From: Mobula hypostoma
Taxonomy: Eukaryota
Direction: 5' to 3'
DNA: 64,000 bases
NCBI RefSeq assembly: GCF_963921235.1
Contig: NC_086097.1
Coordinates: 134,232,001 to 134,296,000 of the forward strand
Part shown: positions 4,185-46,100 of the stretch, piece by piece
Position numbering within the stretch: position 1 is the stretch's first letter
How the letters are laid out: each line of letters opens with the position of its first letter
The notes under the pieces: generated by a model
What the model was told of the DNA's origin: nothing
The model's input: only the letters and a program-made list of their open reading frames with translations
Databases searched by the model: none
Translations under genes and position numbers: made by a program

Positions 4185-4260
4185 CAATGGGCTAGAGCAG
4201 CATCGATGGAGGGAAATGGTCAGCTGACATTTCAGGCTGAAACACTTCATCTGGACTTCA
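4185..4260 (-). mobile_element. Degenerate PLE 3'-end fragment
   Basis: Reverse complement agtccagatgaagtgtttcagcctgaaatgtcagctg..atgctgct resembles the PLE tail at 42441-42510. Confidence 0.55.
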
Positions 4261-5479
4261 TTTTAAAAGGGCGGTTTGTCATCACTTGTATTTTGCATGC
4301 TGCTCAACACTTCTGCCTGTTAGCAGCACAATAACAAACATGGCAACCTGTAGGCTCCTTTAGGGAGGGACAGCTGAGAATTATTACATGTCAGTGTTTC
4401 CAGAGAAGGTGATGAATGACATATTCCCTGCAATTTGTTCCCAGTCCCCACTCTATTGTCCTGTGGAATCTCTGAATGTGAAGAGGACTTTAATTGTTTG
4501 AACAGATTCAAGAAGCTGAGCTTATTCTCAGAACAGAGAAGGACCTGATGGAGGTGTGTAAAACTAGGTAGGGCATACAGGGAAACCGCACCCATTCACA
4601 GAAAAGTCAAGGACCAGAGGACAAAGAATCACAAGTAACATGAGGAAAAAATTCTTGTGCAGAAAGTAATCACGGGTTAGAATGTATTACTTGGAGCAGT
4701 GGTGGCGGTAGAGTTAAATGTAATACTCAAAGGGAGTTGGATAACTATCTGAAGGAAAATAAGAGAGCTGTGAAGAGTGAGTGTGAATGGCTGGATTGCT
4801 CTTGCAGAGAGCTGGCAGGAGCTTGATGTGCCAAAGGACTGCCTACTTAGCTGTAATCATTCAGTGAAAAGTGAGAAAAAAATTTCTGGGATGCAAAGAA
4901 ACCTTTCTGATGGTTACTGCAACATTGGTGTTTATGGACAGAGAGCTGGAATTCAAAGGAGAGCTTGCTCCAAGCTCTTTAGTTACCTACCCCAATGTGT
5001 GTTTATGCATCATCTGTATTTGGTTCAATCTCCATGACTCAATTCTACCTCCTTGGCAAGGAAACCGATGAGAATTACAAAGAATGAGGCAAGGATCAGA
5101 AGAAAACTCATGCCACCTTCAGGCAGACAGAGGTGAATTAAGATGTGAGGGGTACAGTAGAATTAATGTTGGAGGTACAATAGAAGTAATGCTGGCATAA
5201 TCATGATGGGCCGAATGGTCCTGCTCTGTGTTATACCATTGTGTGAAACTTAATCTTAGATCGGAGAAAAAATAACTGATTAACATTCCTATAGTACAAC
5301 AGTGATTAATTTTCCAAAATTATTTCATTGGCTGTGAAACACTTTGCATCAGATTCTGTGTAAGTTGCTCTATAGTGGTGTAAGCTAGGGGGAGAACTTG
5401 CTGTGAGTATCAGCTTCCAGTTCTACCCTTCTCCACACAACTAGCCTTTATCAATGAAACCCAATGAGCCAGCATTGTC

Positions 5480-10621: not shown

Positions 10622-11410
10622 GAATCAGAATCAGAATCAGAATCAGGTTTATTATTACCAACATGTGACGTGAAATTTGTTAACTTAGCAGCAGCAGTTC
10701 AACGCAATACATAATCTAGCAGAGAGAAAAATAATAATAAATAAAATTAAACATAATAATAAATAAACAAGTAAATCAATTATGTATATTGAATAGATTT
10801 TTAAAAATGTGCAAAAACAGAAATACTACATATTAAAAAAAAGTGAGGTAGTGTCCAAAGCTTCAATGTTCATTTAGGAATCGGATGGCAGAGGGGAAGA
10901 AGCTGTTCCTGAATCACTGAGTGTGTGCCTTCAGGTTTCTGTATCTCCTACTTGATGGTAACAGTGAGAAAAGGGTATACCCTGGGTGCTGGTGGTCCTT
11001 AATAAAGGACACGGTCTTTCTGAGACACCACTCCTTGAAGATGTTCTGGGTACTTTGTAGGCTGGTACCCAAGACGGAGCCGACTAAATTTACAACCCCT
11101 CTACAGCTTCTTTTGGTCCTGTGCGGTAGCGCCTCCATACCAGACAGTGATGCAGCCTGTCAGAATGCTCTCCACAGTACAACTATAGAAGTTTTTGAGT
11201 GTATTTGTTGACATGTCAAATCTCTTCAAACTCCTAATAAAGTATAGCCACTACATTGATATGTTGGGACCAGGTTAGATCCTCAGAGATCTTGACACCA
11301 AGGAACTTGAAGCTGCTCACTCTCTCCACTTCTGATCCCTCTATGAGGATTGGTATGTGTTCCTTCGTCTTCCTGAAGTCCACAGTCAGCTCTTCCGCCT
11401 TACTGACGTT
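10622..11410 (-). mobile_element. Rex/Babar-type LINE 3' fragment
   Basis: (GAATCA)n tail at 10622-10645; minus ORFs LNVSKAEELTVDFRK, SFKFLGVKISEDLTWS, HPGYTLFSLLPSSRRYR. Confidence 0.85.
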
Positions 11411-11700
11411 GAGTTGAGATCCTTCTTCCGGACTGAAAGATAGAGGGGAGGTAGCCAGTATAAGGAGGTGAGTGGAAGGGTTGGCACGTGATAGGTGGAC
11501 CCAGGTTAGGAGGGGTGACAGACAGATGAAGCAGGGAAGAGTGGAAATAGACACAGAGGCTGAGGTGAGAGGTGGAGTTGACAATGGTCTACAGATAATG
11601 GCATCTGATAGGAAAGGAAGGCAAAGCAGAGAATCAAGGGAGAGAGGTGGAGAAGACAGATGGGAACAGTAGAGGAAGGGGACCAGTGGAAGGTGTGTGT
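11411..11700 (-). mobile_element. PLE 3' UTR fragment (continuation of pieces at 10218-10277 and 10584-10620)
   Basis: gagttgagatccttcttccggactgaaag followed by purine-rich tract, homologous to the reverse complement of 42200-42470. Confidence 0.6.
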
Positions 11701-14369: not shown

Positions 14370-14550
14370 ACACAAAATGCTGAAGGAACCCAGCAGGTCA
14401 GGCAGAATCTGTCGGGATTCTTTTCATGACTGCTTCGTGCAGGAAATAAGCTCTCGGCATTTCGGGTTGGGACCCTTCATCAGGACTGGAAAGATAGAAG
14501 CCGGAAGCCTGTATAAAAGGGTGGGGAAAGGGGTGGAGCAAGAGCTGGCA
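14370..14550 (-). mobile_element. PLE 3'-end fragment with hammerhead-like motif
   Basis: cacaaaatgctg..cagcaggtcaggcag..tttcgggttgggacccttcatcaggactgg, homologous to the PLE tail. Confidence 0.75.
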
Positions 14551-15504
14551 GGTGACAGGTGGATCCAATGGGTGGATGGTTGGATGGAAATCAGTGGAAT
14601 GGTGTAATGATCGAGTGTTTAATTACCGGATATTTTGAGTCAAGATTATAACAGCCAGTATGAAGGTTGGGTGACTGGAACCTAAATTGTAGACGACTAA
14701 TGTAAAGATTTGGGGATACAAGCTTAAATCATACCATGACTGCTATGAATTTAAATCACAGCTATTATATAAATTTGGAGTTAAAAGGCTTGTAGTGGCT
14801 ATGAAACTGATAGTTCGTCATAAAAAACCTTCTGGTTCACGATGTCCATCCTTACCTGGTACGGTCTACATAAGTCTAGACCCATAAAATCACAGTTTGC
14901 TCTTCACTACCCTCTGAACTGAGCTAGCAATACAATGAATAGCTGCTGTAGCAAAGAAAGCCAGGTCATCTATGATGTGAACTATTATCATAAGAACATA
15001 TGCTTAGTTTTGATGTAAGTATACGTTATGGCCACAAACATTTATACGGAATAAAATGCATCCAGAATATAAAGGGCTTGGGGGGAGCAATGAACCGCAA
15101 TACATTTAAGTACAGGGGAAGGACAGGGAAACCACCAGATAACTGGAAAATCCTTAGTGTTCTTCCAGATATTTTTAGAGTCAGAAGCAGATCTGGAGAA
15201 TTATAGGCTGTAGTCTTGATGTCTATATTAGGGAAACACTGCGATCTATTATAAAGGAAGTGATTTCAAGAGTGTTTAACTAAAGGCAATAATTCCAGCC
15301 CAGCATGGGTGTGTGAATGGCAGATCAGCCCCATCACATTTATCTGAATTTTTCTAAGCTATGAATCACAAGGGGAGGGTAAGTGATGTGCTTCTGGACC
15401 TCCAGAATGGGACAAGATGTTCTTTTTATGTTCAACAAGAAACATAACTCTTGGATATGATCTTGAAAAGGCTATTAATCTATTTACAATTTAGGAAATG
15501 TTAT

Positions 15505-24799: not shown

Positions 24800-25310
24800 A
24801 GGCTAAATCTGAAGGTATGAACATTGAATTTTCTAACTCCCCTCTGCCCCTCCCCTATTTCATGCCTTTTCTTACTGGCCCTGTCACTCGGTCTCTTATC
24901 CCTCCCACACCCTCTCCATCTGCCCATCAGGCAGACATTCCTCCCACCAGTTCCTTTCCAAGCTCCTTCCCATTATTCCTATCCTCTATCCTCTCCTAAC
25001 AAATTCTGTCTTCTTCAGACCCAACACTTCCACCTATTACCTCCCAGCAGCTCCTTACATCATTCCCATCCTCCTCCCTCACTTGTCTATCACTCCCACA
25101 CCAGAATCCACCTATCACCTGCCAGCTCTTGCTCCACCCTTTCTCCCCCCACCCCCCATTTGTTCATACTGGCTATCTTCCCTCTTTTATTAACAGTCCA
25201 GATGAAGGGTCGCAACACAGAACATTGAAAGTCCATTTCCCTCTACTGCTGTTGCAACCAGCATCTTTGTATGTTGCTCCAGATTTCCAGTATCTGCAGT
25301 TTCTCTCATG
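24800..25310 (+). mobile_element. Old PLE 3' end (ORF terminus, pyrimidine-rich UTR, decayed hammerhead)
   Basis: ggtatgaacattgaattttctaac (GMNIEFSN; compare GMNIDFSNFR at 42120-42150), then cagtccagatgaagggtcg and ccagatttccagtatctgcag. Confidence 0.8.
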
Positions 25311-28915: not shown

Positions 28916-30196
28916 CTTCTTCACTCTGAATTATATTTCTACACCACAATGCCAAGGAAGAAACTAAAGGGAAAATGCAACTTCCAACAAAAGAGAAATA
29001 CTGATAATGGCCAAGGGAAAATAGCTTTTTTTTTGTTAATTTGCACATTAATGGTTAATTGTTCCCTTTCCATGTGGAAAGGAAAGTTTGGAAAAGGGAG
29101 CTCCAATAAATGAATTTGGTTTGGAGTTGGTTGATCAATACAGAAAGGATGAACAATAGGCGTACATACACGAAGGGATCGCTGATGAACTATGGGATGA
29201 AAGAGGCAATGAATTCAGATAGCAGATTGCTACCATTCACCCTCCAGAGTACAAGATATTGCCTTTGACCTAAAATGCTTCCATTTATTAACACAACAAG
29301 TTTAGTTGCTGTAAAAGTAATAAGGGTGTCGTAGCTTGCCATTATTTTGGTGCATATTGGGTACCACCTATTGCCAACCACATATGCACAGGTAAATGCA
29401 GAAATTTAAAGGCTCAAGGAGACTTTTTGTTCTTTTGCAATCCTGGCTATAGACTGAAGGCTGAAATGAATGAAACAGCTGAAATTGGAGGACTTGTCCA
29501 CCAGATTTGAACTAGTGGCAGCAGAGTTAGGGTCAATGCATTCAGGCATTCTGTGCTTTGTTAATGGTGAGACAACAACAGTGGTAACTCTCATGCCTTT
29601 AAAAAATGTGACGGAATCTCTTTTCATCACAAGAAAATTAGCGTTGAAATTTCTGGATACAAATCACACAATACAGTAAAACTCTGATGGTCTGTTGTCT
29701 GATTGTTCGGAAAGCCTGATGGTTTGGCACCTGGGTGCTGATGGGCATGTTCCTTGGAAACTCATCTGGTTACGTGTCCCGCATTCCTTGATACACACTG
29801 AGGCTTCATTTCATTGTGCTCTTGAAACTCACTGGATTCAGTTGCTTAAATTCCCTTTAATCGTACCAGGTTTGTTGGAAAATTTATTGAGATATTGTGA
29901 AACCATTTTTAAGTGAATTTAAAGGCTATTGGGAGTACTAAATAGAACAACATCCAGTCATCCAGAAAATCATCCAATTCACCACCACTTGGGTCAGGAG
30001 CAGGGAGTGGAGGAACAAGAGCTATTTTCTTTCTAAGGTCTTTGCAAGGTGAAGAAGATTACTGACAATTCTCCCAGGATGCAAGCCTTCAGTTAGTCTT
30101 TAATGTGCAATAATTTTCTGCAAATGTTTTCTTCTTGCAAATAAGAAGGCAATATTTCTGTCACACCTTTTGCAACCTCAGGATGTCTCAAACACT

Positions 30197-30313
30197 TCTC
30201 GGCCTGAAACGTCGACTGCGCCTCTTCCTATAGATGCTGCTTGGCCTGCTGCATTCACCAGCAACTTTGATGTATGTTGCTTGAATTTCCAGCATCTGCA
30301 GAATTCCTGTTGT
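30197..30313 (+). mobile_element. Young PLE 3' terminal fragment (117 bp)
   Basis: Matches 42459-42575 with only 2 differences, both at CpG sites. Confidence 0.9.
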
Positions 30314-30462
30314 TTGTTGTTTCTGAACTATATTCACATTTGTGGAAAATGTGGCTATCAGAAGTGGTATAAAAATTTCAACAGTTAGTAACAAGAATAT
30401 CTGTTTGAGTGGTGTCAGTTTTAGGATAAATATTGGTTAAAAATATTTTGAGAAGCTCACCT

Positions 30463-30640
30463 AAAATGCTGGAGAAACTCAGCAGGTCAGGTAGCATCTA
30501 TGGAGGGGAATAAACAGTTGACAACTTGAGCCAAGACCCTTCATCAGGACTTCATCTGTTTATTCCCCTTCATAGATGCTGCCTAACCTGCTGAGTTCCT
30601 CCAGCATTTTCCATCTGTTGCTCTGGATTTCTAGAATCCC
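30463..30640. mobile_element. Palindromic PLE-end-derived element
   Basis: Arm 30463-30517 is the reverse complement of arm 30556-30610 (aaaatgctggag..gcatctatggaggggaataaacag / ctgtttattcccc..catagatgctg..ccagcatttt); the spacer holds a decayed hammerhead. Confidence 0.8.
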
Positions 30641-31337
30641 TGGTGTTTATATTTTGAGAAACTCTCTGCTCTACTGTGGGATCTTATGTGGGGTCTGACT
30701 TCAGTTAAAGTCGTATCCATCAGACAGTACTACTAGGAATATTAACCTAGATTTTGTCTGCTGGATTGGACTTGAACCCAACACCAAAGCGGATCATGTT
30801 ATCCACTAAGGAACGGGGTTTGTTCTTGTACTGTCCAGCAAATCATAAGCACTCTGCAAATTCATTGGAGCAGAAGACAATAAGGGGTGATCTTATAGAT
30901 GCGTGTAAAATCATAAGTGGCATAGACATGGCGAATTTATGCAAATCTTTTCTTCAGGATTTGATTTTGATTCTCTCTAGGTGCAGGAAGACATGTTAAG
31001 TGTTTCATTTATATTAGTAATTTGTTGCTTCTACAAGGCATTGGGTGTTCTGAAAGTAACATTGCTATAACATCTTTTGTTTTACATACACTACACATAT
31101 GATGTTCCAATTAACCTTTTATTAAACAAACTTAAATATTCAAACACAACAACAGAATGAAGCGGAAAATCATAAAAAGTGAACCTGAAAATGGAAGTAC
31201 GTGACCAAGCAGGGAAAACCAAGAAGGGAATCCAAAGGGAGGAGGAGATCAAAAGGAAAGAGAAGGGAAGAGCTCCTGCATTGTGATTTGCTGCTGGCAA
31301 GCCTGGAGAGGTGTCAAACTTAGTTGCTTGCATAGGC

Positions 31338-31525
31338 GCAAGAGACAGCTAATGCTGGAATCCGGAGCAAGAAGCAAGCTGCTGGAAGAACTCAGCAGGT
31401 TGAGCAGCATCCATGGGAGAAAAAGAATTTTCAATGTTTCACACTGAAGTACTGACAAATTCTTTTCCTCCCACAGATGCTGATTAACCTGCTGAGTTCA
31501 ATCAGTAGATTGCTCTTGCTTCAGT
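31338..31525. mobile_element. Palindromic PLE-end-derived element (older)
   Basis: gaactcagcaggttgagcagcatccatgggagaaaaagaattt ... aaattcttttcctcccacagatgctgattaacctgctgagttc. Confidence 0.75.
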
Positions 31526-34497: not shown

Positions 34498-35876
34498 TCA
34501 CGCCTCCTGGTTCTCACCTACTTCCATTTCTTGCTCCTCCCCCGCTGGCAATTCTGTCATGACTACTTCTGACCTGCCCTCGGTGTAGCACTCCGTCAAT
34601 GCAATAGTCGTCACTGGGTGACTGAGGGCAGAAACACCCTCTGCCATCAGCTCCATCACACCGTGCGGGTAAAGCTCCGTCACTGTCCTGGAGTCCACAC
34701 TGTTCACCATGCCGTGGGGCAGCTCGGTAACAATAACGTGAGTCGCTTCCTCAGACATATGAGTGGTGGCCTCCTGAACCATGGCTTGGGCGATTTCCTC
34801 CGTGACTATTAACTGCGATATACTGCCGTCGGAGTCTATCAGCTGCACGGGGTGGCCACTGGTGGTTATAGTTTGCTCCTCGCCTTCCTGCATTATGATC
34901 TGGGAGGCCCCCTCCATCACATGAGCAGCTCCTTCTTTGGTCACTATCACCTGTGTGATGCCGTCTTTCACAATGTGGCTTGCAGTCCTTATGTCACACA
35001 TGGTAAACTGTAGGACCTCTTGCACCATGTCACTGAGGGAAGCCTGAGACACAGTCTGTGCCATGGTATCGTTGATGGCTACAGGCTGTTCGACCTCTGA
35101 TGTCACCTCCACAGTCTTCATGGCTTCATCCGCCACTTGCTCCTCGTGGGAGGCCTGAGCATCTGTCCCTAGTGGCTCACTTGGAACTGGGGTGACCTCC
35201 TCAGTGGCAGGTCCAGCTGTGCCAGCTCCCCCCTGGGCGGGTTCGCTGCCTCCCTGCTCGGTCGACCTCACCTCCACCGCACCCAGCTCTGTGATGGCGC
35301 ACAGGAGTGCGTCCAGGGCTGTTGGCATATCTGCAGGCTGCCCTACCGGCTCTTCCTGAGTCACCACATGCTCGATTACGTGACTAGGATCTCCGAGGGT
35401 CTCCATGGTCACGGCAGCTTCCCCAGCCTCCCCTCCTCTAACGGGACTCTCCACCACCACGACCTGGGTAGTGCCCGACGCCAGGTGTTGTGACAGAATC
35501 TGTCCAGGCATCATACCATCGATCTGGCTGGCACTTTGTGCAGTGGCTATAAGCTGGCCGTCCTCTGTGATGTGGACCACCTCTGCCACCTGGGCCATCT
35601 GACCAGCCATGGCCAGGGTCTGGAGAGTTGCTGCTGCTGTGGCTTCCACCGAGGCGTCAATGGGGATAGTTTCCCCATAGCTATCTTGATAGCCTTGGAT
35701 TATGATGACTTGCCCGAGTGGTTCAGCTGTTTCCTGCTGTTGAACGCAACCACTGACCGAATCGCCTGTGACCTCAGTAGAATTCGTGCTTGGAGGCGTG
35801 TTGAATGGAACGGCCGTCTCCACAAACTGTGCCCCTTGTCCTTTCAAACGACACTCATATGCCTTGGAAACTATGC
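34498..35876 (-). CDS. ZNF407: Zinc finger protein 407, terminal coding exon (acidic, low-complexity C-terminal tail)
   Basis: Acceptor tttctttatttctgaaattccAG|GC ATA GTT TCC AAG gives (G)IVSKAYECRLKGQGAQFVET (phase 1). Contains AAATLQTLAMAGQ, VVHITEDGQ, ALDALLCAITELG, VLQF..CD, VKDGITQVIV, ISQLIVTEE..QAMVQE and ends QEA*, all recognisable from the vertebrate ZNF407 C-terminus. The ORF track's start at 35847 is an internal TTG (Leu). Confidence 0.95.
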
Positions 35877-36049
35877 CTGGAATTTCAGAAATAAAGAAAT
35901 ATCAGTTATGCTCAAAGGATCTGAAAAGATAATGTACTTTATCCAATACTGATGTCTCATTGTAATTGATATAGACTTTTTCATATAAGTACCAAAGCAA
36001 TATACAGTACTGACTTATTTAAATCTCTCCATCCACCACCAGCGGACAA

Positions 36050-39790: not shown

Positions 39791-40626
39791 CTGAGGAGTG
39801 ACTTGGTTCCACTCCAATTTACCTACCATCATAAAAGATCAAAAGCAGATGCCATTTCATTGGCTCTTCACTGGAACATCTGGACAGTGAAAATGGATAC
39901 ATCATTGACTACAGATCAGCATTCAACACTATCATCCCCTCCAAACTAATGAGTAAGCTCTAAGACCTACTAGGTCTCAATACCTCTTTGTGCAACTGGA
40001 TCCTTGATTTCCTCACTTGCAAACCCCAGTAAGTTCAGATTGGCAAAAACATCTCCTCCACAATCATCATCCGCACAGGTGCAACACAAAACTGCGTACT
40101 TAGCCCCCGCTCTACTCACTTTATACCAATGATTGTGCAGCTTTATACAGCTTCAATGCCATACTTAAGTTTGCTGATGACATCATTGTTGTAGGCCAAA
40201 CCAAACGTGGTCATGAACATAGAACATAGAAAATCTACAGCACATTACAGGTCCTTTGGCCCACAATATAGTTCAAAGTTTACACTAGAAGCTGCCTAGA
40301 ATTTCCTTACCGCATAGCCCTCTATTTTTCTAAGCTCCATGCACCTAAGAGTCTCTTAAAAGACCCTGTTGTAGCCGCCTCTACCACCTTAGCTGGCAGT
40401 GCATTCCATGCACCCACCACTCTGTGTGAAAAACATACCTCTGACATCCCTCTTGTACCTAGTTCCAAGCGCCTTAAAATTATGCCCCCTCGTGCTAGCC
40501 ATTTCAGCCCTGGGAAAAAGCCTCCGGCTATCCACACAATTAATTCCTCTCATCATCTTATACACCTCTATCAGGTCACCTCTCTCATCCTCCGTCGCTC
40601 CAAGGAGGAAAGGTCAAGTTCACTCA

Positions 40627-42152
40627 CCTCCTGCCCCTGCTCCTGCCCCACCGAACTCGTTTCTGCATACCTCGACACTGTTTTATCACCCCTTGTTCAA
40701 TCCCTTCCGACCTATGTTCGTGACACTTCTCACGCTCTTAAACTTTTCGATCATTTTAAGTTCCCTGGCCCCCACCGCTTTATTTTCACCATGGATGTCC
40801 AGTCCTTATATACTTCCATCCCCCATCAGGAAGGTCTCAAAGCTCTACGCTTCTTTTTGGATTCCAGACCTAATCAGTTCCCCTCTACCACCACTCTGCT
40901 CCGTCTAGCGGAATTAGTCCTTACTCTTAATAATTTCTCCTTTTGCTCCTCCCATTTCCTCCAAACTAAAGGTGTAGCTATGGGCACCCGTATGGGTCCT
41001 AGCTATGCCTGCCTTTTTGTTGGGTTTGTGGAACAATCTATGTTCCGTGCCTATTCTGGTATCTGTCCCCCACTTTTCCTTCACTACATCGACGACTGCA
41101 TTGGCGCTGCTTCCTGCACGCATGCAGAACTCGTTGACTTTATTAACTTTGCCTCCAACTTTCACCCTGCCCTCAAGTTTACCTGGTCCATTTCCGACAC
41201 CTCCCTCCCCTTTCTAGATCTTTCTGTCTCTGTCTCTGGAGACAGCTTATCCACTGATGTCTACTATAAGCCTACTGACTCTCACAGCTATCTGGACTAT
41301 TCCTCTTCTCACCCTGTCTCTTGCAAAAACGCCATCCCCTTCTCGCAATTCCTCCGTCTCCGCCGCATCTGCTCTCAGGATGAGGCTTTTCATTCTAGAA
41401 CGAGGGAGATGTCTTCATTTTTTAAAGAAAGGGGCTTCCCTTCCTCCACTATCAACTCTGCTCTTAAACGCATCTCCTCCATTTCACGTACATCTGCTCT
41501 CACTCCATCCTCCCACCACCCCACTAGGAATAGGGTTCCCCTGGTCCTCACCTACCACCCCACCAGCCTCCGGGTCCAACATATTATTCTCCGTAACTTC
41601 CGCCACCTCCAACGGGATCCCACCACTAAGCACATCTTTCCCTCCCCGCCTCTCTCTGCATTCCGCAGGGATCGCTCCCTACACAACTCCCTTGTCCATT
41701 CGTCCCCCCCATCCCTCCCCACTGATCTCCCTCCTGGCACTTATCCGTGTAAGCGGAACAAGTGCTACACATGCCCTTACACTTCCTCCCTTACCACCAT
41801 TCAGGGCTCCAAACAGTCCTTCCAAGTGAGGCATCACTTCACCTGTGAGTCGACTGGGGTGATATACTGCGTCCGGTGCTCCCGATGTGGCCTTTTATAT
41901 ATTGGTGAGACCCGACGCAGACTGGGAGACCGCTTTGCTGAACATCTACGCTCTGTCCGCCAGAGAAAGCAGGATCTCCCAGTGGCCACACATTTTAATT
42001 CCACATCCCATTCCCATTCTGACATGTCTATCCACGGCCTCCTCAACTGTAAAGATGAAGCCACACTCAGGTTGGAGGAACAACACCTTATATTCCGTCT
42101 GGGTAGCCTCCAACCTGATGGCATGAACATTGACTTCTCTAACTTCCGCTAG
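40627..42152 (+). CDS. PLE reverse transcriptase + GIY-YIG endonuclease (partial, N-terminus missing)
   Basis: TMDVQSLYTSIP, QTKGVAMGT, YIDD, LPFLD, YYKPTD (PLE RT); CKRNKCYTC linker; VIYCVRC..C..LYIGETRR..RFAEH..VATHF..GMN (GIY-YIG). The first ~48 aa of the predicted ORF (from 40482) are antisense CR1 read-through. Confidence 0.92.
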
Positions 42153-42443
42153 GCCCCACCTCCCCCTCGTACCCCAGCTGTTACTCATTTTTATGCACAC
42201 ATTCTTTCTCTCACTCTCCTTTTTCTCCCTCTGTCCCTCTGAATATACCTCTTGCCCATCCTCTGGGTCACCCCCCCCGTCTTTCTTCCTGGACCTCCTG
42301 TCCCATGATCCTCTCGTATCCCCTTTTGCCTATCACCTGTCCAGCTCTCGGCTCTATCCCTCCCCCTCCTGTCTTCTCCTATCATTTTGCATCTCCCCCT
42401 CCCCCTCCAGCTTTCAAATCCCTTACTCACTCTTCCTTCAGTT

Positions 42444-42479
42444 AGTCCTGACGAAGGGTCTCGGCCTGAAACGTCGACT
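42444..42479 (+). ncRNA. Minimal type I hammerhead ribozyme motif (PLE-associated)
   Basis: AGTC-CTGACGA-A-GGGT(CTCG)GCCT-GAAAC-GTC-GACT: conserved CUGAnGA and GAAA boxes, stem I AGUC/GACU, stem II, palindromic ACGU stem III. Confidence 0.75.
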
Positions 42480-42890
42480 GCACCTCTTCCTATAGATGCT
42501 GCTTGGCCTGCTGCGTTCACCAGCAACTTTGATGTATGTTGCTTGAATTTCCAGCATCTGCAGAATTCCTGTTGTTCAAGTTCACTCAACCTATTTTCAT
42601 AAGGCATGGTCTCCAATCCAGGCAACATCCTAGTAAATATCATCTGCAGTCTCTTTATAGCACCCATATCCTTCCAGTAATGAGGTGTTTTATTGCAGCA
42701 GCTTTGAGCATCCTAAGAATATAGACCCCAAGATCTTACTGATCCTCCACACTGCCAAGACTCTTACCATTACTATTATATTCTGTCTTCAAGTTTGACC
42801 TTCCGAAATGAACCACTTCACACTTATCTGGCAACACACACAAAATGCTGGTGAATGCAGCAGGCCAGGCAGCATCCATAGGAAGAAGCA

Positions 42891-42932
42891 CAGTCGACGT
42901 TTCAGGCTGAGAACCTTCGTCAGGACTAACTG
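42891..42932 (-). ncRNA. Minimal hammerhead motif, sense to the ZNF407 pre-mRNA
   Basis: Reverse complement cagttAGTC-CTGACGA-AGGTTCTCAGCCT-GAAAC-GTC-GACTg. Confidence 0.6.
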
Positions 42933-43109
42933 AAAGAAGATATAGTAAGAGATTTGAAAGTGGGAGGGGGAGGGGGAGATCCGAAATGATAGGAGAAGAC
43001 AGGAGGGGGCGGGATAGAGCTAAGAGCTGGAAAGTTGATTGGAAAAAGGGATACAAGGCTGGAGAAGGGAGAGGATCACAGTTTGAGTTAGTTACAGATT
43101 CTTTCAGTT

Positions 43110-43145
43110 AGTCCTGACGAAGGGTCTCGGCCCGAAAAGTCGACT
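43110..43145 (+). ncRNA. Hammerhead motif with mutated stem III
   Basis: AGTC-CTGACGA-AGGGTCTCGGCCC-GAAAAGTC-GACT (C>A in ACGT). Confidence 0.5.
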
Positions 43146-46100
43146 GTGCTTCTTCCTATGAATGTTGTCTGGCCTGCTGCGTTCCACCAGTACTTTGTCT
43201 GTGTTGCTTGAACTTCCAGCATCTGCAGATTTCCTCCTGTTTACACTTATCTGGGTTCAACTCCATCTGCCACTTCTCGGCCCAGTTCTACATCCTCTGA
43301 CAACCCTCCAGCCTATCCACAACATCCCTCAACTTTTGTATCATCAGCAAACTTACTAACCCCCTCTTCTACTTCTTCATCCAGGTCATTTATAAAACTC
43401 ACAAAGAGGAGGGGTCCCAGAACAGATCCCTGCGGAACACCACTGATCACCGTTCTCCATGCAGAATACGAGACATCCACAACCACCCTTTGCCTTCTGC
43501 GAATCAGCATAAAGGAGGGAGATTGAAAATCTGGCTGAATGGTGGCACAACAACAACGACCTCTCACTCACACAAGAACCAGAGAGCTGATTATTGACTA
43601 CAGGAGGAGGAAACCAATCCTCATCAGGGGATCAGAGATGGACAGGGTCAGCAACTCCCCAGTGTTATCATTTCAGGAGGTCTGTCCTAGGTCCAGCGCA
43701 TAACCGTCATTACAAAGAAGACAAAGCAGTGCCTCTACTTTCTTAGAAGTTTGCACAATTTTGGCAAGTCATCTAAAATTGTGACAAACTTTGGCAGATA
43801 CGCAGTGGAGAGTATACTGAGTGGCTGAATTACAGCCTGGTATGGAAACACCAATGCCCTTGAACAGAAAATCCTACAAAAAGTAGGGGATACAACCCAG
43901 TTCATCACAGGTAAAACCATCCCCACCACTGAGCACATTTACAAGGAGCACTGTTGCGGGAAAGCAGCATCCATCATCAAGCACCCCCACCACCCAGGCC
44001 ATGCTGTCTTCTCACTGTTGCCATCAGGAAGGAGGTACCAGGAGCCTCAAGTCTCACATCAGTTTCAGGAACAGTTAATGTCCCCCAGCCTTCAGTCTCT
44101 TGAACCAGACTGGATAACTTCACTTATTCCCAACACTGAACTCATTTAACAACCTATGGACTCACTCTTAAGGACTCTGCAACTCGTGTTCTTGATTTAT
44201 TGCTAATGATTTTTTATATTTGCTCAATTTGTTGTCTTTTGTACTTTGGTCATTTGTCGGTCTTGTGTGCAGATTTTCATTGATTCTATTGTGTTTCTTT
44301 GTGTTTACTATGAATGCCCGCAAGAAAATGAATCTCAGGGTACCATTAGTGACATATATGTACTTTGATAAGAAACTTACTTTGAACAGGTGTATTGTAA
44401 ATGACGTCAAATAATCTAAAACATTTTGCTTCTTAATCCTGTAAATCAATTGTATCTGGGATCTTAAGCCAGATATAACCTGGTATAAGATAGGGAAAAT
44501 AACCACTCAAGTCTGTCAGTGAGTCTTAAACTCTTGGCATTTGTGCACAAGTAAATTAATAAATTGGTTTATCTTTGTCACATGTACCAAAGTACAGTAA
44601 AAAACTGTTTTTCATGCCATTAATACAGATTACTTTATCACATCAGTGCAGTGAGGTAGTACAAGGGAAAACAATAACAGAATGCACAATAAAGTGTCAC
44701 AGTTACAGAGTAAGTGCACTGCAGGCAGAGAATTTCAACGTAGAATTTGAGGTCAGAAGTCCATCTTATTGTATAAGGAGATGTTCAAGAGTCTTACATC
44801 GGTGGGATAGAAGCCGTCTTTGAGCCTGCAGATGCACTGTGTAACAAGTGATTCTGCCGCTGAATATCAAGTCAACATTCACACACAAGCAAAAAGGAAT
44901 GGAGAAAACCCTCTTCTCTTGGCACTAAATTTTAACAAAGAGAGGAGGGGAAAGAAGAAAAAGAATTTACTCAAAATTAACTTGCATTTGTGTCTGGGAT
45001 ACTCTTAAGGAGTTGTCTTTGTAAATTTCACTGAGATCACTTGACAGTAGAAAGATAGGAGTAAAGCATCTTATTGACCATATACAAGAGGTTATTCTTG
45101 GTAGTTGGTAAAATCATTGGAAATATCTCTATACCCTCTCCTAACCAGAAAAATAATCTCTGGAGATCGAAAATGATAAAACACAATTCTTTGTTCTTGA
45201 TCTTCACTCTAAAAATTAATGTTTCCCAACGTAGGATGTGACCTTAAATCTTGTCATTCAAGCACTGTGAATAACCATTGAAATAACTGACAGTTAAAAA
45301 TCTCGTAGCCTATGATCACATGTTCACTGTGGATCTTTTAAGAATCTGCACATCTCCATTCAGCACACGATGATTTAATGTAAAGTCCCTAGGGTTTGGA
45401 AATATCTGGTGAATCCTTTTCAAAGCGGATAATTGCGGGATGCAATCTGCTGACTTAATCTATTCCGAAACCAGAGGTGGGCTAAGTCACTTCCCTGACC
45501 ATTAAACCAAGATGCTCCTGTAAATACTGTCATCACTAAGGGGGCGATGAAGCTTAACTGCATCAGGATCTTAACCTTTGCACTGAACATGACTCAAGCT
45601 TTTCTATCCTAGTTCATAAATGTGATTGCGGGTCCATCTTTTGATGCTGCAATTTAATAACTTGGAGTGCTGTCAGTACTCCTTTGAAAAATGGCTCCTA
45701 TAAAATGTAATGACCTCAATCAGATTGTAAAGATTCACCCACTGAAGATTCTTTCATTTCAACCTAGATGAATTAATGTGAAGCTATGCAAAAGTTCAAG
45801 TGGTATTACAACTAATGTAACACGATGGTGTAACTGCAATTCAGAAGAGTTTTTGCCCTGCAATAAATTGGAATTAAATACAATACGATCAAGATTTATT
45901 CTTTGAGAAGGGTTGCTTCACTGAGCTAGAGTATGATAAAAACTACTCTTAGAGGGAAGGGAGGAGTCATTCCACAATGGGGTGTTAAAGAAACAGGACA
46001 AGTGTTCGTCACCTTTCATAAATGTGGTTTATTTTAGTATGAGTCAGCCTGTTAATTCTTCTCAGTGATTGAACTGGGTGTGTGGAGAGCCCAGCCAGAA

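Follow-up and report, generated by a model that had tools for sequence, protein, structure and literature searches.

The parent element and its hammerhead motif

The window, a 64,000-nucleotide stretch of the Mobula hypostoma genome, carries at 40638-42576 on the forward strand what its sequence and its homology to sister copies identify as one 5′-truncated insertion of a Penelope-like element (PLE). A 12-bp target-site duplication (TSD) encloses it, at 40615-40626, followed by an 11-nt filler (40627-40637), and, in identical form, at 42577-42588. The truncated ORF (40638-42152, stop codon at 42150-42152) encodes a reverse transcriptase (RT) with a YIDD motif, a C-x4-C-x2-C linker, and a GIY-YIG endonuclease (EN); the open frame itself begins at 40272, with PLE homology only from 40638. 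Pfam matches to RVT_1 (E = 1.6e-5) and GIY-YIG (E = 3.6e-4), both under the gathering score, agree with the single ORF of EN+ PLEs, in which the RT is joined to a C-terminal GIY-YIG domain. The partial-tandem pseudo-LTR (pLTR), inverted 5′ copies, 30- to 40-bp tail, and TSD of EN+ PLEs are likewise present. In the available part of Craig et al. 2021 (PMC8557442), a CX2-5CxxC linker between RT and EN defines the Neptune and Nematis clades, whose EN+ members resemble our element in domain order as well as in partial tandems, inverted 5′ copies, and tail length. The linker in our translation points to one of these two clades, and it is lacking in Penelope/Poseidon elements such as PAc of the anole.

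Sister copies supply the missing 5′ part. Open frames of more than 1000 aa were found in at least 8 of 60 near-full loci, so the family appears to be young. Tandem units with two intact motifs ∼3.5 kb apart exist, and in one such partial tandem, locus L097, the ribozymes are spaced by 3510 nt, with an in-frame ATG first appearing 169 nt after helix I. In PAc, in contrast, the ORF starts in stem II according to the accessible text of Frangieh et al. 2024 (PMC11167929). An upstream ORF of 16 codons with a TGA stop (42495-42545, + strand, and also in L097) spans the region from ribozyme to tail in most translated copies. The insertion itself sits in another abundant repeat (40200-40626) that is common to many fetched loci.

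Downstream of the ORF, the pyrimidine-rich 3′ UTR part of the pLTR (42153-42443) leads into the hammerhead motif. It is followed by a further pLTR segment (42480-42544), near whose end lies the first class of copy 3′ ends (∼42538-42548), and by an optional tail (42545-42576), whose last position, 42576, marks the second class (44/100 copies). Two signal-like sequences overlap the start of the motif. One resembles a 3′ splice site (42424-42445), with a branch-point-like TACTCAC (TACTAAC in sister copies), a pyrimidine tract, CAG, and TAG, as in the splice consensus, and ends inside helix I. The other, TTAGTCC (42442-42448), is initiator-like (consensus YYANWYY); its +1 would be A42444, and copy 5′ ends peak at 42444-42445.

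The motif occupies 42444-42479 (+), starting 292 nt past the stop codon in the frame for RT plus GIY-YIG, and matches both our descriptor and the published PLE consensus for a minimal type I hammerhead (min-HHR). AGTC (42444-42447) and GACT (42476-42479) form the 4 bp of stem I, to which U42443·G42480 can be added. The CUGACGA box (CTGACGA, 42448-42454, from C3 to A9) is followed by an extra A at 42455. Stem II pairs GGGT (42456-42459) with GCCT (42464-42467) across a CTCG loop, giving 4 bp that begin with the wobble between G10.1 (42456) and U11.1 (42467). GAAA (42468-42471) runs from G12 to A15.1, and the CGTC that follows it completes the ACGU palindrome (42471-42474) and the GUC triplet (42473-42475), with C17 at 42475. 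It has the CUGANGA and GAAA boxes of the min-HHR class, an NUH cleavage triplet (GUC), a palindromic 15.1-16.1 stretch with no or a tiny loop 3, a helix I that is open and within the 3- to 5-bp range, and a helix II that is closed. We hold the motif to be almost certainly a minimal type I hammerhead of the PLE kind, with cleavage predicted after C42475. The preliminary description had proposed just this class, with a palindromic stem III (here ACGU), and core and element context bear it out; the letters it gave and its predicted cleavage position at 42475 were confirmed.

We further examined the predicted fold. In a folded 38-mer, the stem II register that leaves the extra A unpaired had a pairing probability of 0.96; the shifted register, in which this A pairs with U11.1, reached only 0.02 and was rejected. 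The monomer as a whole is predicted to form a rod, computed at −11.0 kcal/mol against −7.0 kcal/mol for the open monomer, by pairing of G5-A6-C7-G8 to C15.2-G16.2-U16.1-C17; these core-sequestering pairs have probabilities of 0.98-0.99. For two free copies, the corresponding values are −30.3 for a long duplex versus −11.5 for the double hammerhead, as secondary-structure energies that leave out tertiary contacts. The fold z-score of the motif was only −1.24, and among the 8 matches to Rfam covariance models at E ≤ 5 there was no hammerhead family, so the evidence for the ribozyme lies in its core match, copy number, and location rather than in folding energy.

The lone RNA is predicted to be an inactive rod that pairs GACG with CGUC, which would make any cutting slow and dependent on conditions. 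Lunse et al. (RNA Biol) reportedly describe dimer cleavage of PLE hammerheads, possibly including a close variant. In the available portion of Cervera and de la Peña 2014 (PMC4209133), a motif on its own failed to cut and cleavage of dimers was weak; given that loop 3 is absent, we infer from that work that two copies paired through ACGU would be needed to form an active core. The behavior of anole PAc, as far as the accessible text of PMC11167929 describes it, fits the predicted inactive rod: its ribozyme required protein to cut, and RNA that had stayed uncut served as the main template. Cleavage after C42475 is accordingly predicted only for two copies held together by ACGU pairing, likely aided by the element's own protein.

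The extra A and the copies in window and genome

The A after the CUGANGA box had been described as a noncanonical core insertion worth testing. This proved wrong, since the published PLE min-HHR consensus is CUGANGAH. A conserved residue sitting between 9 and 10.1 is a family trait of PLE hammerheads in the consulted part of PMC4209133, whose supplement gives the CUGANGAH consensus with A in most vertebrate rows. In our data, the extra nucleotide is A in 158 of 163 nontruncated copies from four groups, and it is the normal form of this PLE family. The same A between A9 and G10.1 is found in the (+) hammerhead of CChMVd, a viroid ribozyme that is not associated with PLEs; there, according to the available text of a review (PMC3705267), it lowers the cleavage rate only moderately. 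The motif and its extra A are thus of a kind already described in 2014 (PMC4209133, as seen in part).

Beyond the core, the motif shares with the min-HHRs described in the accessible sections of that study a short helix I, a loop-less palindromic helix III (ACGU), a U-rich upstream flank, a pLTR position, mostly solo truncated copies, and opposite-strand pairs 100-700 bp apart. It differs in its helix II of 4 bp, compared with 5-8 bp in most of the published rows, and in abundance, with one pattern present here in at least 45,642 copies against ∼4,000 in coelacanth and ∼9,000 in Xenopus. The searched portion of the supplement returned 0 matches for shark, skate, Callorhinchus, and Leucoraja.

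The 10.1-11.1 pair differs among subfamilies. It is G·U in 78/80 copies of the youngest subfamily and G-C in 8/11 copies of subfamily B; in the tail-selected sample (see below) G·U was found in 48/56 copies, far exceeding CpG decay. C-G at 15.2/16.2 is kept in 71/80 of the youngest copies. The stems showed one-sided changes and an altered loop, and no two-sided compensatory change was found among the close subfamilies compared. We considered whether the motif of the youngest subfamily is a catalytically dead relic, kept as an RT-binding or promoter region. The prevalence of the G·U pair and the predicted 4-kcal/mol preference for the inactive rod would suit such a relic, as would the Naiad PLEs, which spread without canonical hammerheads (PMC8557442, seen in part). 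However, core positions are all retained across groups, CpG decay excepted. Moreover, G10.1-C11.1 is conserved above 80% and is not invariant in the available rows of PMC4209133, several of which have G·U. We consider a dead relic highly doubtful.

In a search of 3.48 Gb of genome sequence, one 34-nt pattern that allows eight variants gave 45,642 exact matches (22,781 and 22,861 on the two strands) and its reversed control gave 0, which bears out the expectation of very many copies genome-wide. With the descriptor, we obtained 110 matches in 777,511 enriched bases, and once more the reversed control gave 0. Two matches in the genome sample belong to a second hammerhead family, in which the box is followed by an extra U, stem II is longer, and stem I reads GCA/UGC.

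Within the window, the preliminary description had listed eight related sites, at a density of roughly one per 7 kb. All eight are homologous to the motif, but only those at ∼42900 and ∼43110 pass the descriptor, decay or truncation having affected the remaining six. The density accordingly counts relics, and descriptor-positive motifs number 3 in 64 kb. Most window copies are decayed: an old relic at 4189-4261 (−, ∼4230) that starts at helix I and one at 25085-25310 (+, ∼25200) have decayed cores in which CAGATGA replaces CUGANGA, and a third, at approximately 11400-11434 (−, ∼11420), is decayed and interrupted, with a damaged box. The old copy at 14370-14574 (−, ∼14460) has intact boxes but is missing stem I's 3′ strand, and the young copy at 30196-30314 (+, ∼30200) is truncated at its 5′ end inside stem II and is without the CUGANGA box. 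Near 30520, an old inverted pair (30552-30458, −; 30571-30646, +) has a damaged box, and its longer arm starts at helix I. The two descriptor-positive sister copies are the arms of another inverted pair, with the ∼42900 arm at 42825-43056 (−) carrying its hammerhead at 42927-42890 and the ∼43110 arm at 43098-43241 (+) carrying one at 43110-43147, in which 15.2 is A and the ACGU palindrome is lost. This latter arm is the nearest same-strand partner of the motif, 666 nt downstream. Because there is no ribozyme upstream and this neighbor is without the palindrome, the copy at 42444-42479 is probably inert, and the insertion that carries it is probably dead.

Other features of the window were noted in passing. 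In Rfam, the inverted pairs of PLE ends at 31346-31507 and 30458-30646 match plant microRNA precursors with scores below the gathering threshold; these matches are hairpin artifacts. On the reverse strand, 34498-35901 holds an open frame of 467 aa in which Q, E, and V are frequent. This frame, which likely represents a host gene's last coding exon, had no Pfam match and an Atlas match of only 0.75, and it may resemble the C terminus of ZNF407. If this gene extends upstream, the hammerhead would lie antisense to one of its introns. A frameshifted LINE RT remnant, presumably CR1-like, lies at 933-2967 (−; RVT_1, E = 3.8e-28).

The 5′ ends of copies

We mapped where copies end on their 5′ side, giving positions relative to A42444. 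In a sample of 100 of 29,705 copies, chosen by tail pattern alone, 22 of the 78 at risk end within 42435-42446 (0.0235 per nt), compared with 4.9 expected from the neighboring rate (p about 1e-8); across 41400-42399, the background rate is 0.0008-0.0017 per nt. Genome-wide, junctions with nonelement sequence upstream numbered 12,610 at 42435-42448, 3,111 at 42422-42434, and 1,162 at 42471-42484, counts that are rough since the anchors differ and each set includes some mutated, deleted, or nontruncated rows. By eye, the first 100 rows of the 42435-42448 set, 5 of them set aside as other subfamilies, gave 20 ends at 42444, 19 at 42445, and 9 each at 42443 and 42446, with the rest spread. The first 100 of 656 matches in subfamily B, with 4 rows set aside, gave 33 at +1, 12 at 0, and 10 each at −1 and +2, again by eye. 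The accessible parts of PMC4209133 and PMC11167929 yielded nothing on where 5′ ends of copies fall.

The predicted cut site leaves little trace in this map. Among tail-selected copies, 2/98 end at 42475-42477, solo rows ending there number ∼5-7 among the first 100 matches listed (by eye), and none of the 63 copies at risk does so in a sample of 90 of the 698 copies that carry 5′ body. As a cleavage footprint, the 5′ ends thus show a weak bump at most. This is in line with PAc, for which no RNA reads end at the cut site in the available text of PMC11167929, and we consider it very probable that the template is mostly uncut RNA. That text also describes, for PAc, extension from both target strands and two internal RT starts that define the tail. 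The two classes of 3′ ends here form a similar pattern, which PMC8557442 shows to be the signature of a PLE tail, and RT would start at the two tail boundaries, ∼+100 and +132; the likely starts are a proximal one at ∼42538-42548 and a distal one at 42576.

As the cause of the 5′ pile-up, we put forward an RNA start at the initiator-like TTAGTCC, a proposal that we regard as evenly balanced. Many templates would then begin at A42444 or G42445, and run-off synthesis would yield the thousands of 100- to 135-nt copies. Several observations bear on this proposal. The peak base is G (+1), not the initiator A (0), and a G preceding the junction, as might derive from a cap, was seen in 13 of 33 subfamily B rows at +1 (by eye) compared with ∼10 expected, which is no clear excess. 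Of the tail-selected copies, 56/100 reach upstream of 42435, which implies either more distant starts for many templates or jumps by RT. Among 45 long copies, 1/29 end in −9 to +2, as against 22/78 tail-selected copies (p = 0.007), and over the wider span of −19 to +15 the figures are 4/32 and 39/89 (p about 0.001). Since long copies barely stop at helix I and many short ones pass it, a plain model in which the mRNA starts here is incomplete. In four contig sets, no RNA ends were found; the helix I joints in them have unknown letters between, in a probable DNA run. An HDV-like fold starting from G42445 was also looked for, by eye, and no P1 partner of the expected layout was found.

The pile-up could instead mark a roadblock, where a protein-bound ribozyme or a hairpin formed by the new cDNA stops RT or undergoes trimming as far as helix I. 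A roadblock would account for the location of the pile-up, close to the RT start and absent from the distal ribozyme in long copies. It would also accord with the self-complementary rod form of the motif and with several inverted junctions in which the complementarity of its GACT or CGTC is used (by eye). Yet no stop is seen at the 3′ foot of the hairpin, where RT would meet it first, and the peak in subfamily B remains at G42445 even though 1-2 bp can be added to stem I there, so that it does not follow the outer edge of stem I. We judge a roadblock rather unlikely.

Alternatively, a 3′ splice site overlapping helix I could set the 5′ ends, either because splicing factors at the AG block RT or because an exon start is released and gains a G. 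In young and older groups alike, a pyrimidine tract and (C/T)AG end at 42445, with TACTAAC in some copies, so that the peak base G42445 would be the last base of the intron; in the consulted part of PMC4209133, a Drosophila virilis intron ends at helix I. Against this, solo short copies mostly adjoin 8- to 13-bp target duplications directly or via short fillers (28 rows, including ∼8 from other subfamilies or from inverted pairs that had been missed), which rules out an upstream exon spliced onto the ribozyme in solo copies. Moreover, junctions at the predicted branch point form only a mild bump (by eye), the first AG (42440-42441) has few ends, and the published min-HHR consensus already includes U-rich sequence upstream. 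A splice site as the determinant is, in our view, improbable.

Fusions, inverted pairs, and a possible replication cycle

Among the 5′-body copies, the body ends before +1000 in 45, and 41 of these are head-to-tail fusions to a 5′-truncated 3′ piece; of the remaining 4, 3 meet flanking sequence and 1 meets an inverted copy. Body ends at +200 to +340 had been considered as further RT starts and were shown to be such fusions. The joints fall mostly at +196 to +340 on the body side, and on the other side at −1 to +3 in 7/41, upstream in 33/41, and at +44 in 1/41. One target duplication encloses the whole composite in 20/33 fusions tested, and 32/33 have no further body downstream, so the fusions look like single events, which suggests that they arise by template switch or from end-joined RNA. 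In 5/33, the inverted arm carries the same joint. In L269, L281, and L247, one or more extra A residues precede the fusion joint at A42444, as nontemplated addition or an oligo(A) RNA end would leave.

The fusions place two ribozymes ∼200-440 nt apart and include the start of the ORF (L285, L303, L289, L301, L266, L269, and others). We regard these short composites as candidate template-switch products and retrozyme precursors. They resemble animal non-LTR retrozymes, described in bioRxiv 10.64898/2026.07.22.740005 (in the part available) as short tandem units with pLTR-related type I hammerheads. That preprint proposes local amplification of terminal sequence, whereas the units here arise inside single insertions and include the ORF start. 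The window copy is not such a retrozyme, being the single 3′ end of an ORF-bearing element. By analogy with the anole template, whose minimal 3′ extent is the first 172 nt of the ORF (itself beginning in stem II), the lower edge of the landing zone may lie near this extent.

Inverted pairs were analyzed in parallel. In 44/45, one arm belongs to each of the two 3′ end classes, and arm ends correlate (rho 0.62; 23/45 within 20 nt versus 11.9 permuted), although locus selection and palindromic junctions have possibly inflated this correlation. Simple cDNA fold-back as the source of the arms was unsupported, since the tail-less arm is the longer one in 20/45 pairs.

A further proposal, taken from the accessible text of PMC4209133, is that ribozyme-cut, unit-length RNA is circularized and copied as a rolling circle. 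The ∼3.5-kb tandem units with two intact motifs would be expected from such copying, long copies continue through the 5′ ribozyme, and a seamless circle would leave no junction. But circles leave short copies that start before the cut site unexplained, none of the 41 fusion junctions lies at the cut site (+32), and ribozyme mutants left insertion in vitro unaffected (PMC11167929, as seen in part). A rolling circle thus seems quite unlikely.

Taken together, these data favor, as the probable overall reading, a minimal type I hammerhead in the 3′ pLTR of a PLE whose template is mostly uncut and whose RNA starts near helix I. An extension of this reading, which we offer as an unlikely possibility, would combine ribozyme and initiator in a cycle like that of LTR elements. 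With an mRNA that started at A42444 and was cut at the downstream C42475, a terminal repeat of 32 nt would remain, and priming of RT at 100-132 nt from the 5′ end would produce a strong-stop cDNA. This cDNA could insert as a mini-copy or jump seamlessly to the cut 3′ end, copy the entire unit, and rebuild the pLTR, and jumps landing at +196 to +340 would give the short two-ribozyme units. If true, such a cycle would be a direct birth route for retrozymes.

The literature searched, seen in part and with most subscription journals outside its scope, gave no account of the 5′ pile-up or the fusions, and the available text of PMC8557442 describes the role of PLE hammerheads as still open. As a young and very large family, the present PLE records where reverse transcription starts, stops, and switches template. 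Its end map argues that the short copies are not derived from ribozyme-cut RNA, and it supplies the exact positions that CAGE, in vitro TPRT, and assays of the ribozyme could address.
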